The notes: generated by a model from the sequence alone, not told the origin. Shown: positions 6,946 to 12,305, counted from the stretch's first letter. The stretch: 16,048 bases of DNA from a virus (IMGVR_UViG_2636415477_000004:1-16048), one strand, 5' to 3'. Program-made: numbers and translations.

Positions 6946-9369
6946 ATGTGGAACCTTTTGCGGCGAACCCGAAAAAACCAGAAATCAGGACGTGATGTAA
7001 AAGAGGTGGGCTGGACCAGCCTGTTTCAGGCGGTGGCTGAGCCCTTTTCCGGCGCCTGGCAGCAGGGCGTGAAAGCCGATCCTGAAGCCGTCCTCTCCTT
7101 TCATGCGGTGTTTGCATGTATTTCGCTGATATCCCAGGATATCGCCAAAATGCGGCTGCGTCTTATGCAGACGGATGCGCATGGGATACGCAGGGAAACG
7201 CGCCGGGGGGATATTGCCCGCCTCTGTCGTCGTCCCAACGCCCAGCAGAACCGCATCCAGTTTTTTGAACTGTGGCTGAACGCCAAACTGCGTCACGGCA
7301 ATACGGTGGTGCTGAAAATCCGTAATGCCCGGGGGCAGATCAAAGAACTGCGTATTCTGGACTGGAGCCGGGTTGAACCTCTGGTGGCGGATGACGGCGA
7401 GGTGTTCTATCGCATTACACCGGACCGGAACTGCGGGATCACGGAGGCGGTGACGGTGCCTGCCAGGGAAGTGATCCACGACCGGTTTAACTGTTTTTTT
7501 CATCCGCTTGTGGGGCTGCCGCCGGTGTATGCTGCCGGGCTGGCTGCCACGCAGGGGCATCATATTCAGGCAAATTCAACGTCTTTTTTCAGAAATGGCG
7601 GCAGGCCGTCCGGGGTGATTGAGATCCCCGGCAGTATAACGGAAGAAAATGCGAAAAAACTGAAGAGCAACTGGGACAGCGGGTATACCGGCGAAAATGC
7701 GGGGAAAACGGCGATCCTGAGCAACGGGGCGAAATATAACCCCACGACGTTTTCACCGGTGGATGCGCAGACGGTGGAACAGCTGAAAATGACGGCTGAA
7801 ATTGTCTGTTCGGTGTTCCGTGTCCCGGCCTACAAGATTGGCGTTGGCCAGCCGCCTTCCAGTGACAACGTGGAGGCGCTGGAGCAGCAGTATTATTCCC
7901 AGTGTCTGCAGACGCTGATTGAGTCCATTGAGCTGTTACTGGATGAGGCGCTGGAAACAGGGGAAAACGAGAGTACAGAATTTGATGTCACCACGCTGCT
8001 GAGAATGGACAGTGAGCGGCGCATGAAAACGCTGGGGGATGCGGTGAAAAATACGCTTCTCACGCCCAATGAGGCCCGTAAACGGGAGAACCTGCCGCCC
8101 CTGGCCGGCGGTGATGCACTGTATCTTCAGCAGCAGAACTACAGTCTGGAGGCGCTGTCCCGTCGTGATGCCCGTGAGGATCCGTTCGCGTCGACCGGGA
8201 AAACAGTTTCATCACAACTGCCTGACGGCGCATCTGACGGTAATAAGGCCATAAGCGAAACAGAGCATGATGCAGTGAAAGCGATGTTCAGGGGGGATAC
8301 TGAGAAAATGACGGAACGGGAACTGTCCATTATTCGTGCACTGGGAGAAGAATTCTCCACAGTGCTGGCGGATTTACAGCGCACATTTGAGGGGAAGATG
8401 GCCTCGCAGGCACAAGCGTTTGAAGAGAAACTGACTTCCCTGTCGGCGGTATTACAGAAGCATGTGACGGTGGATGAGGTGCGTCCGGTTCTGCAGGCGA
8501 TGGTGGATGACGCTGTGGGGGCCATTCCGGTACCGCGTGATGGTCGTGATTATGATCCGGATGTACTGCAGCAGGCGGTGAATGATGCGGTTGCGAATAT
8601 TCCGGTACCGGCGGACGGCAAAAGTATCACCCCCGATGATGTGCGTCCGATGCTTGAGCAGATGGTGAAAGAGGCCGTAAGTCATATCCCTGCTCCGCGT
8701 GATGGTCGTGATTACGATCCGGAAGTACTGAAGCAGGCGGTGAATGATGCGGTTGCGAATATTCCGGTACCGGCGGACGGCAAAAGTATTACCCCCGATG
8801 ATGTGCGTCCGATGCTTGAACAGATGGTGAAGGAGGCGGTAAGCCATATTCCTGTTCCGCGCGACGGTCGTGACTACGATCCGGATGTTCTGCAGAAGGC
8901 GGTTCTGGATGCGGTGAGTGCCCTGCCGGCTCCGCAGGACGGGCGTGATGCCACGGCACTGGAAATACTCCCTGCCATTGACGATCAAAAATCCTTTCCC
9001 CGGGGCACGTATGCCACACACCAGGGCGGACTCTGGCGGGCGTATGAAAAAACGCACGGGATGCGGGGATGGGAATGCCTGGTTGACGGGGTGGCCGATA
9101 TTGACGTCAGCATGACCGGCGAACGGTCGTTCACTGTGGTGGTCCGGCAGAGCAGTGGCCAGCGTACGGAAAAAACATTTTCCCTGCCGGTGATGCTCTA
9201 CCGCGGTGTGTTCAGAGCCGGTGAAACCTACCACCCCGGTGATACGGTGACGTGGGGGGGCTCGCTGTGGCACTGCAACAGTATGACCGCCGATAAACCG
9301 GGGGATGCGCATGCATCTGGCTGGACGCTGGCTGCCAAACGGGGACGGGATGCAGGAGGCGGAAAATGA
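6946..9369 (+). CDS. Portal protein (HK97-family core) with ~370-aa repeat-containing C-terminal extension
   Basis: 807-aa ORF. The N-terminal motif AVFACISLISQDIAKMRLRL and the central region (FRVPAYKIGVGQPP...) match portal patterns. GGAG lies 8 nt upstream of the ATG. Residues ~512-673 are tandem repeats. Confidence 0.75.
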   Translation: MWNLLRRTRKNQKSGRDVKEVGWTSLFQAVAEPFSGAWQQGVKADPEAVLSFHAVFACISLISQDIAKMRLRLMQTDAHGIRRETRRGDIARLCRRPNAQQNRIQFFELWLNAKLRHGNTVVLKIRNARGQIKELRILDWSRVEPLVADDGEVFYRITPDRNCGITEAVTVPAREVIHDRFNCFFHPLVGLPPVYAAGLAATQGHHIQANSTSFFRNGGRPSGVIEIPGSITEENAKKLKSNWDSGYTGENAGKTAILSNGAKYNPTTFSPVDAQTVEQLKMTAEIVCSVFRVPAYKIGVGQPPSSDNVEALEQQYYSQCLQTLIESIELLLDEALETGENESTEFDVTTLLRMDSERRMKTLGDAVKNTLLTPNEARKRENLPPLAGGDALYLQQQNYSLEALSRRDAREDPFASTGKTVSSQLPDGASDGNKAISETEHDAVKAMFRGDTEKMTERELSIIRALGEEFSTVLADLQRTFEGKMASQAQAFEEKLTSLSAVLQKHVTVDEVRPVLQAMVDDAVGAIPVPRDGRDYDPDVLQQAVNDAVANIPVPADGKSITPDDVRPMLEQMVKEAVSHIPAPRDGRDYDPEVLKQAVNDAVANIPVPADGKSITPDDVRPMLEQMVKEAVSHIPVPRDGRDYDPDVLQKAVLDAVSALPAPQDGRDATALEILPAIDDQKSFPRGTYATHQGGLWRAYEKTHGMRGWECLVDGVADIDVSMTGERSFTVVVRQSSGQRTEKTFSLPVMLYRGVFRAGETYHPGDTVTWGGSLWHCNSMTADKPGDAHASGWTLAAKRGRDAGGGK
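8479..8964 (+). repeat. In-frame tandem repeat inside the portal gene: three 162-bp units, each two ~27-aa sub-repeats
   Basis: Units begin at 8479, 8641 and 8803 (period 162 bp). Adjacent copies are near-identical at DNA level with mostly synonymous differences; sub-repeat pattern is L.Q.V..AV..IPVP.DG. Confidence 0.85.
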
Positions 9370-9692
9370 CGGCATTACTGACACTGGAAGAGATCAAGGC
9401 ACATCTGCGTGTCGACCATGACGCGGATGATGACATGCTGATGGACAAGGTTCGTCAGGCTACCGCCGTGCTGCTGGCCTACATTCAGGGCAGCCGGGAT
9501 AAGGTGATTCGTGAGGACGGTGAACTGATCCCGGGCGAGGCATTAACCCGGATGAAGGGGGCTGCCATGCGACTGACCGGGATGCTGTACCGGAATCCGG
9601 ATCTTGCGGAGCGGGAAGAACTGCTTCAGGGGGAGCTGCCGTTTTCTGTTTCCGTGCTGATTTACGATTTGCGTTGTCCGACGGTGTTATGA
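9366..9692 (+). CDS. Head-tail connector protein (gp6-like)
   Basis: 108-aa ORF with start overlapping the portal stop (ATGA); N-terminus MTALLTLEEIKAHLRVDHDADDDMLMDKVRQATAVLLAYIQG is typical of gp6-like connectors; position after portal. Confidence 0.65.
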   Translation: MTALLTLEEIKAHLRVDHDADDDMLMDKVRQATAVLLAYIQGSRDKVIREDGELIPGEALTRMKGAAMRLTGMLYRNPDLAEREELLQGELPFSVSVLIYDLRCPTVL

Positions 9693-10903: not shown

Positions 10904-11620
10904 ATGTCTGCTTTGTATGAACGCTCACAGCTGACGCAGGTGATGATTTCATCTGCCCCGGCGACTGCTGAAACTATGGATAAGGCGGAATATCTGCGCC
11001 TGGACTGCACCATCAAGGAAGTCCAGTTCACCGCCGGTCAGAAACAGGATATTGATGTGACCACGCTCTGCTCCACAGAGCAGGAGAACATCAACGGTCT
11101 GGGGGCGTCGTCCGAGATTTCCATGTCGGGTAATTTTTATCTGAATCAGGCCCAGAACGCCCTGCGTGATGCCTATGACAATGACACGGTGTATGCGTTT
11201 AAGGTGCAGTTTCCGTCCGGTAAGGGCTTTAAGTTCCTGGCGGAAGTGCGTCAGCACACCTGGTCATCCGGTACCAACGGCGTGGTGGCTGCAACGTTTT
11301 CACTTCGCCTGAAGGGTAAACCGGTGTCCTATGTGGTACCGCTGGCGTTTGTGAAAAATCCGGAGAAGACACTTACCGTGAATACCGGTGCGCTGCTGAC
11401 AATGTCAGTCAGTGTTAACGGGGGAACGCCGCCTTATAAACACGCCTGGAAGAAGGATGGTCAGCCGGTAGAGGGACAGACTACTGACACTTTCAGTAAA
11501 GCCAATACGCAGTCAGGTGATAAGGGGGCTTATACCTGCGAGGTAACGGATTCTGCAGAACAGCCGCAGAGCATTACCTCTGACGCGTGTACGGTAACGG
11601 TTAATGGTGCGGGCGGATAA
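10904..11620 (+). CDS. Major tail (tube) protein with C-terminal Ig-like domain
   Basis: 238-aa ORF with a strong Shine-Dalgarno, directly upstream of the chaperone and tape-measure genes. The C-terminal ~85 aa (TLTVNTGALLTMSVSVNGGTPPYKHAWKKDGQPVEG...GAYTCEVTD...CTVTV) have the W / Y.C hallmarks of an Ig-like domain. Confidence 0.75.
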   Translation: MSALYERSQLTQVMISSAPATAETMDKAEYLRLDCTIKEVQFTAGQKQDIDVTTLCSTEQENINGLGASSEISMSGNFYLNQAQNALRDAYDNDTVYAFKVQFPSGKGFKFLAEVRQHTWSSGTNGVVAATFSLRLKGKPVSYVVPLAFVKNPEKTLTVNTGALLTMSVSVNGGTPPYKHAWKKDGQPVEGQTTDTFSKANTQSGDKGAYTCEVTDSAEQPQSITSDACTVTVNGAGG

Positions 11621-11625
11621 GGCTT

Positions 11626-12000
11626 ATGGCAAAAGATCTGAAAACACTGGCACTGGCCAGGCTGTCGGGGTTCCGTCATAAAACGGTGAAGGTGCCGGAA
11701 TGGGGTAATGTCAGCGTGGTGCTGCGGGAGCCTTCGGCAGAGGCCTGGTATCTGTGGCGGGAAGTGCTGGATGGCGGTGATGCGGGTGACGATACCCTGT
11801 CGGTGGTGGCGAAAACCCGCCGTAACCTGGAAGCGGATGTGACGCTGTTCTGCGATGTCCTGTGTGATACGGATCTGCAGCGGGTGTTCACTCCGGACGA
11901 CCGTGAGCAGGTGCTGGCCGTCTATGGTCCGGTACATGCCCGGTTGCTGCGTCAGGCACTGGAACTGATCGCTGATGCAGAGTCGGCCAGAAAAAAGTAG
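11626..12000 (+). CDS. Tail assembly chaperone (lambda gpG-like)
   Basis: 124-aa acidic ORF between the tail tube and tape-measure genes; ends ...ESARKK with an A_AAA_AAG heptamer immediately before the stop. Confidence 0.8.
   Translation: MAKDLKTLALARLSGFRHKTVKVPEWGNVSVVLREPSAEAWYLWREVLDGGDAGDDTLSVVAKTRRNLEADVTLFCDVLCDTDLQRVFTPDDREQVLAVYGPVHARLLRQALELIADAESARKK
11991..11997 (+). promoter_or_regulatory. Programmed -1 ribosomal frameshift slippery heptamer (A AAA AAG)
   Basis: Heptamer sits in the gpG-like zero frame three nt before its TAG stop. The -1 frame is open from 11997 through 12305 with no Shine-Dalgarno before the first in-frame ATG at 12024. Confidence 0.7.
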
Positions 12001-12305
12001 CCCGCCCGGAAATTCGCTTTCTGATGCGACTTGCGCTCCGTCTGGGGCGCACCTTATCCGAACTGCGGCACAGCCTGAGTGCGAGCGAGGCGATGATGTG
12101 GATGGAGTTCGACAGGGTATCCCCGCTGGGTGATGAGCGCGGGGATATCCGTAATGCACAGATCGTGAAAGCGGTTTTTGGGGCACAGGGGATGAATGTT
12201 GCACTGAAGGACGCCATGCTCTGCTGGGGCGAGGATGAGGATAAGCCGGAGGTGGATCCGTTTGCGGCGCTGGAAGACGCGCTGAGCTTTGCAGCACAGT
12301 CATGA
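11997..12305 (+). CDS. gpT-like segment, expressed only as a G-T fusion by -1 frameshifting
   Basis: Reading frame in the -1 frame relative to the G-like gene, overlapping its end, with no independent ribosome-binding site; matches the lambda G/GT chaperone arrangement upstream of the tape measure. Confidence 0.7.
   Translation, partial: VARPEIRFLMRLALRLGRTLSELRHSLSASEAMMWMEFDRVSPLGDERGDIRNAQIVKAVFGAQGMNVALKDAMLCWGEDEDKPEVDPFAALEDALSFAAQS

Follow-up and report, generated by a model that had tools for sequence, protein, structure and literature searches.

The window analyzed here, a stretch of viral DNA of 16,048 nucleotides (nt) (IMGVR_UViG_2636415477_000004:1-16048), is the late region of a lambdoid Escherichia coli prophage of the Stx1a/Stx2c-phage type. 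On its plus strand, an open reading frame (ORF) at 6946-9369 encodes a protein of 807 amino acids (aa), the last part of which the original prediction took for a C-terminal extension of the phage portal protein. We found that this ORF very probably consists of two neighboring virion genes that a one-base insertion has naturally fused in frame. The upstream partner is an HK97-family portal gene. The downstream partner, which we call X, starts at M455 of the ORF (nt 8308) and is predicted to encode a helix, an array of acidic repeats, and a terminal beta knob. The features are collected in the table.

Features of the 807-aa ORF and of the gene that follows it (coordinates in the window)
Feature	Position	Strand	Basis or remark
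Portal proper, aa 1-454	6946..8307	+	HK97-family core at aa ~43-420, then a ~35-aa acidic C-terminal tail
G6 homopolymer, fusion point	8291..8296	+	Sequence reading, alignment, census
X start and N-terminal helix, ~50 aa	8308..8463	+	ATG at 8308-8310, MTERELSII...; AlphaFold2
Acidic repeat array, six sub-repeats	8464..8943	+	Tandem Repeats Finder, motif positions, AlphaFold2 secondary structure, charge
C-terminal all-beta knob, ~140 aa	8944..9366	+	Contains putative CBM5/12-like modules
gp6-like head-tail connector gene	9366..9692	+	ORF list; PF05135 match

The first 454 residues are an ordinary HK97-family portal. The Pfam profile PF04860 (Phage_portal) scored 271.9 bits against a cut-off of 39.1 and was confined to aa 54-382, TIGR01537 (portal_HK97) scored 349.4 bits against a cut-off of 112 over aa 45-388, and the PDB portals 9lbn, 8cez, and 6tba matched aa 43-420 only (E values of 1e-28 to 7e-12). 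The portal lies in a head-morphogenesis module, with TerS, TerL, protease-capsid, connector, and head completion genes as neighbors. The original prediction was right that the ORF exceeds a portal core, as neither portal profiles nor solved portals reach beyond these limits. The C-terminal 353 aa are not part of the portal proper: of 62 E. coli-type copies drawn from the window, GenBank phages, complete genomes, and IMG/VR contigs, 39 have them as a separate ORF, as does every comparison locus outside the E. coli group except a metagenomic fusion (L014/L015).

When the terminal domain was used as a query, many E. coli proteins of 245 aa were recovered, together with proteins of 240-250 aa from Salmonella, E. 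albertii, and metagenomes. The 240- to 250-aa homologues all start at the methionine of residue 455, reading M[TDN]ERELS[IL]I..., and the stand-alone homologues P0017, P0085, P0089, and P0102 likewise begin at the equivalent of M455. In phages from Salmonella, Klebsiella, Rhizobium, EBPR, and metagenomes, and in ~60% of the sampled E. coli copies, the portal gene is immediately followed by X as a gene of its own; X lies directly 3′ of the portal at all loci examined (L004, L005, L012, L013, L014, L096, L097, L098, and L100). A Salmonella prophage has a portal of 479 aa and an X of 246 aa with an 8-nt overlap, one metagenomic phage has separate genes for a 445-aa portal and a 242-aa X, and two more metagenomic phages are split in the same way, as are Salmonella phage FSL SP-016, EBPR siphovirus 3, and Rhizobium phage RHph_X2_26. 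The Stx1 phage BP-4795 encodes the portal in ORF58 (454 aa) and X in ORF59 (461 aa), phage Lys8385Vzw has a 454-aa portal and a 245-aa ORF joined by an ATGA overlap, and all 16 IMG/VR loci of ~70% identity are split. Such overlap between the portal stop and the X start is the normal arrangement at split loci, and overlapping stop and start codons recur at every locus examined.

A profile search of 1.84 billion representative proteins (50% identity representatives) recovered 7811 members of the X family at E<=1e-3 and 897 at E<=1e-30. Among the 150 family matches listed, 148 had no portal domain and 2 had one; the median length was 330 aa. Judged by these matches, X is a very large, uncharacterized family of phage proteins that stand alone and whose genes adjoin those of HK97-type portals. 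A second homologue search with the family alignment gave mostly partial E. coli proteins and no added diversity. We found no family for X in a local copy of Pfam, in NCBIfam, or in the PDB; against solved structures, X and its family profile matched only designed helical repeat proteins (E>0.005). Literature on portal fusions, on 2851 and BP-4795 virion proteomics, and on PF28083 yielded nothing on the X protein. PF28083.1, which is attached to E. coli proteins made of repeats and knob only (P0451, P0501, and others) and not to the Klebsiella homologues, may be a recent Pfam entry covering part of X.

The two states are separated by a single base. The junction in the window reads TTC AGG GGG GAT ACT GAG AAA ATG ACG. 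In split E. coli copies, the run is G5 or is interrupted, so that the portal frame ends as ...AMFRGILRK-TGA; one extra G (G5 to G6) puts the portal frame into the frame of X. The original prediction had named a stop codon in relatives at ~8400-8480 as a sign of two fused genes. Such a stop exists, but at the equivalent of 8309-8311, where it overlaps the X start (ATGA). With this, the extension can no longer be read as the portal's own C-terminus. The portal tail motif LRGI(L/I) is common to E. coli and Salmonella (..SLRGIIQNG*) in the split frame only, which indicates that the split arrangement is ancestral. Situated 12-17 nt ahead of the X ATG, the G6 run may also serve X as a Shine-Dalgarno sequence.

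Across the 62 copies, all 23 fused ones had G6, on two junction haplotypes, and the run was G5 or interrupted in 38 of the 39 split ones. The exception, Escherichia phage vB_EcoS_phi330 (L099, PV189401), has G6 and is broken elsewhere. Its portal, X, and several tail genes lie in short ORFs, which suggests homopolymer sequencing errors in the record and not biology. There were three interrupted runs (one G3 and two G4). G5 and G6 are both common in E. coli copies. In a neighbor-joining tree of the flanks, four G5 copies are nested in the main G6 clade and a second small G6 group sits elsewhere; this interleaving implies either repeated change at the run or recombination. For a second sample, we took 60 evenly spaced records from 1250 matching ones (1245 E. 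coli genomes), using the best-matching copy of each. Thirty-six aligned to the window without an indel and 24 with a one-base deletion, and five copies that were inspected all had G5 or an interrupted run. A second fusion occurs in a distant lineage, in a metagenomic phage whose fused protein, P0136 (1237 aa, ~25 repeats), is present on 4 contigs. By these counts, the fusion is lineage-specific, natural, recurrent, and common among E. coli prophages.

AlphaFold2 modeled the N-terminus of X as a single helix (residues 3-52) with a predicted local distance difference test score (pLDDT) >90, a candidate portal-docking or oligomerization helix. The repeats that follow are much as the original prediction had them, that is, tandem units of 27/54 aa in three 162-bp copies whose differences are mostly synonymous. 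Tandem Repeats Finder reported a period of 162 at 8524-8903 (2.3 copies, 90% matches, score 641), and six [IL]P.P..G motifs at aa 527, 552, 581, 606, 635, and 660 have spacings that alternate between 25 and 29 aa. Each sub-repeat is a helix of 13-17 aa plus a 12-aa [IL]P.P.DG loop and belongs to one of two alternating types (25 and 29 aa), so that a pair makes 54 aa or 162 bp. The array can be described as two complete 162-bp units with a degenerate half-unit on either side or, in the other phase, as three 54-aa units. Units 1 and 2 differ at 12 nt, with 8 synonymous and 3 non-synonymous codon changes. Random single-base changes would be expected to give a synonymous share of ~23%, and by this excess (binomial p = 7e-4) the repeats, which are coding, look constrained at the protein level. 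The net charge of the repeat array, or stalk, is about -15.

Copy number varies between strains, as had been anticipated, with 2 to 14 motifs. The length of X in E. coli steps as 245+54n (245, 299, 353, 407, 461, and 569 aa), and lengths of 294, 348, and 402 aa occur in Klebsiella. The number of repeats thus expands and contracts by whole 54-aa (162-bp) units. A short collagen-like or GxDGKD tail extends past the knob in P0155 (L013 2130-4475), P0120, and P0113; the example from P0155 is GADGKDGKDGEKGEKGERGLRGYSG. These tails hint at trimerization in part of the X family.

The last ~140 aa form a distinct domain, as predicted, and were modeled all-beta with pLDDT 93.5. Its supposed likeness to carbohydrate-binding beta modules found borderline profile support: the knob alone scored 25.5 bits against Pfam CBM_5_12 (PF02839), under the cut-off of 26.2, and members of the X family scored 21-26.4 bits, with P0173 alone above the cut-off. 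The modeled knob shows the characteristic small beta fold of CBM5/12 and resembles chitin-binding domains and tail-fiber tips. On this model, the knob contains CBM5/12-like (chitin-binding-type) modules, and carbohydrate binding by it is only putative. Its Trp, Tyr, His, and Cys residues hardly vary within the X family. X residues H238, H250, C257, H322, and C323 (aa 692, 704, 711, 776, and 777 of the ORF; nt ~9019-9276), which are invariant or nearly so and come from both halves of the knob, stand in the contexts ..ATH.GGLW.., ..THG..GWEC.., and ..LWHC.., and these His and Cys residues could form a metal site or a disulfide.

With a pI of 8.0, the knob is close to neutral. In seven of nine matched phage comparisons, its identity equals or exceeds that of both the portal core and the capsid. 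Knob identity was 56% for L005 (portal core 43%, capsid 43%), 61% for L012 (46% and 46%), and 55% for L014 (48% and 62%). The knob is therefore conserved like core head proteins and unlike receptor-binding tips. Its slow evolution points to a conserved ligand, perhaps DNA, a component of the virion, or, after ejection, the glycan backbone of peptidoglycan, and not to a host-specific receptor.

Taken together, a gene fusion and a portal-associated accessory head protein X probably explain the locus. As to position, we see about an even chance that X is internal, tethered at the portal crown. In all solved portals, the C-terminus lies inside the capsid, at the crown, and natural fusions to it are found in two separate lineages; from this, the synteny with the portal, and the conservation of the knob, we infer that X normally sits at the inner end of the portal. 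One of the fused lineages includes a named Stx2c phage, and both forms occur in named Stx phages, fused in 2851 and split in BP-4795, which we take to be infectious. The connector gene start overlaps the X stop by 4 nt (ATGA), an overlap that marks portal, X, and connector as a translationally coupled string. Through such coupling, X would be made in step with the portal and, by way of its N-terminal helix, would attach to the C-terminal (crown) tail of the portal or close to it. The G6 fusion would turn this association covalent, and fused phages would carry twelve copies of X hanging from the crown within the capsid. The earlier suggestion of a fused head protein survives in that X is a separate gene directly after the portal in nearly all relatives; as a feature of the portal itself, it does not.

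X resembles several known systems in part. Like SPP1 gp7, Mu gpF, and staphylococcal 80alpha gp44 (Phage_Mu_F), it is encoded directly after the portal. Like proteins of the SPP1 gp7/Mu F type, it also looks accessory and not core, since it tolerates free and fused states and large changes in length; its own association with the inner portal is putative. Those proteins lack the helical repeat stalk and the CBM5/12-like knob, and neither the window protein nor nine X family members had a Pfam match to Phage_Mu_F. In the fused allele, X recalls the C-terminal barrel of the P22 portal, as a long, largely helical extension from the crown into the head. However, that barrel is intrinsic to the portal chain, whereas X is a gene apart in nearly all relatives, terminates with a beta knob, and has lengths between 245 and 569 aa among near-identical phages. 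Compared with the CBM5/12 modules of ChiB, ChiC, and ChiA1 (PF02839), the knob of X sits within a larger, 140-aa beta domain, is found solely at the terminus of a head-module protein of phages, is as conserved as capsid genes, and binds carbohydrate only putatively. Foreign domains fused artificially to the C-terminus of the T4 portal gp20 are reportedly carried into the capsid interior; the G6 allele, which is natural, recurrent, and common in E. coli prophages, would likewise bring its domains inside.

Several observations weigh against an internal, crown-tethered X. Its placement in the virion is a prediction from sequence and models, and the repeat-region helices were modeled with only moderate confidence (pLDDT 56-75 from a 150-sequence alignment). 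X has no sequence similarity to SPP1 gp7 or Mu F proteins. The fiber-like design, the CBM5/12 fold, and the collagen-like tails (P0155) would suit an outer appendage that binds glycans, as would the tail-fiber or collagen-like proteins that X matches best among viral folds. The fused allele might be tolerated and so be uninformative on the normal position of X, and translation from the ATG of X could still supply the free protein. A different and, to us, rather unlikely explanation is that X is an external neck or collar fiber of T4 fibritin-like design, anchored near the portal or adaptor, with a knob that binds surface carbohydrate, and that the G6 fusion is tolerated or mildly defective while free X is translated from the ATG at 8308. 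The attachment helix, the helical segments broken by loops, and the small C-terminal beta domain of X are shared with T4 fibritin (wac) and segmented-helix fibers, and the X gene lies among neck genes, between those of the portal and the head-tail adaptor; in the fused allele, its start codon and the purine-rich stretch upstream are intact. T4 fibritin is external, though, and has no sequence similarity to X. In-frame fusion to a portal terminus inside the capsid, twice and in separate lineages, speaks for an internal X, as does a knob conserved like core head proteins across distant hosts, and we found no fusion of X to an external adaptor.

The junction itself admits other explanations. The G-run could be a switch, by phase variation or by ribosomal or transcriptional slippage, that yields free and portal-tethered X in a set ratio. 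Besides the three interrupted runs, only G5 and G6 occur in the 62 copies, with no G7; the states are interleaved on the flank tree, with G6 on two haplotypes, and both are found in named phages. Yet recombination between prophages could also produce an interleaved tree, a run of 5-6 nt is short for high-rate slippage, and junctions of the Salmonella and metagenomic phages contain no homopolymer at all. By inspection, neither allele has a canonical slippery heptamer (X XXY YYZ) at the G-run, where the zero frame reads AGG GGG GAT when fused and AGG GGG ATA when split. We consider such a switch very unlikely. Less credible still, to the point of being nearly negligible, is that the 807-aa ORF is a homopolymer miscall, with G5 read as G6, or conversely that the long ORF is ancestral and the split copies are decayed pseudogenes. 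A single homopolymer base does separate the two states, and the annotation pipeline PGAP, whose view the latter is, calls split copies "frameshifted." But an assembly error, which the original prediction had allowed for, does not account for the same G6 allele in 23 of 62 independent copies. The identical junction recurs in 20 further independent sequences, phage 2851 included, and the 261 bases of junction flank at 8180-8440 match the complete genome of E. coli strain EC2 at 100%. Against an ancestral long ORF, all outgroups are split, nearly all the listed family representatives (148/150) are stand-alone proteins, and the split copies keep intact X ORFs with the 245+54n length series.

Should X indeed be a portal-associated head protein, it might represent a new class of portal-crown protein, in which an expandable acidic stalk and a glycan-binding-type knob reside inside the head and either exit by the portal once the DNA has passed or keep hold of the end of the DNA, with the G5/G6 tract acting as a heritable switch between free and tethered forms that alters DNA delivery or the establishment of infection. 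We regard this fuller version as doubtful. The free and tethered alleles in the otherwise near-identical Stx phages BP-4795 and 2851 provide a natural experiment on the role and position of X.

The fusion also bears on annotation. The module is present in 1245 of 5426 complete E. coli genomes, about a quarter, with 2906 copies among them. PGAP records the split state in RefSeq E. coli genomes either as one pseudogene, "phage portal protein, frameshifted" (e.g., L007-L010: NZ_CP025573, NZ_AP021963, NZ_CP074815, and NZ_CP023541), or as two "phage portal protein" genes. Other records give X the name "phage portal protein," "gp6-like head-tail connector protein," or "carbohydrate binding domain," and PHROGs family 1289 ("portal protein") is the X family. 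PGAP, PHROGs 1289, and many RefSeq names thus give the stand-alone X family a wrong function, and the mislabeled split state affects calls of prophage intactness for Stx phages. What these labels cover is a large, portal-adjacent family without a described function, with a stalk of variable length and a knob conserved at the level of the capsid. The name "gp6-like head-tail connector" on some Klebsiella X fragments led us to consider a fusion of X to a gp6-like adaptor; a chimeric X+gp6 query recovered stand-alone X only, over 64% of the query, and the name is a mislabel.

Across the portal region, the DNA of the window shares 93-96% identity with phage 2851, Stx1a phages, and others. The gene order runs Rz, KilA-N, HNH, TerS, TerL, a protease-scaffold-capsid fusion (645 aa), a 73-aa ORF, the 807-aa ORF, the gp6-like connector, head completion, gp10-like, and tail completion protein genes, followed by an Ig-bearing tail tube, G/T chaperones, and tape measure. 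The 645-aa ORF (4797-6734, +) encodes in a single chain an S78 prohead protease (aa 48-152), a coiled-coil stretch resembling a scaffold, and a major capsid domain of the HK97 type (aa 386-635). The portal gene comes after the capsid gene and not before it, an arrangement that the Salmonella and metagenomic relatives share. The conserved 73-aa ORF (6779-7000, +), hypothetical in relatives and matching no family, shares its last 55 nt with the start of the portal gene (6946); small counterparts of 53-63 aa precede the portal in the Salmonella and metagenomic loci.

Farther downstream, the tail tube protein (10904-11620, +) has a C-terminal Ig-like domain (Ig_2/Ig_3/I-set, aa ~150-233) and is mislabeled "fibritin" in one phage record, with a fragment labeled "Hoc-like head decoration" in another. 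ORFs at 11626-12000 and 12024-12305 (+) are a lambda G/T-type pair of tail assembly chaperones (Phage_TAC_1 and Phage_tail_T), a pair at which programmed -1 frameshifting is expected. As is the case in HK97-like cos phages, the HNH gene (1857-2222) precedes TerS.

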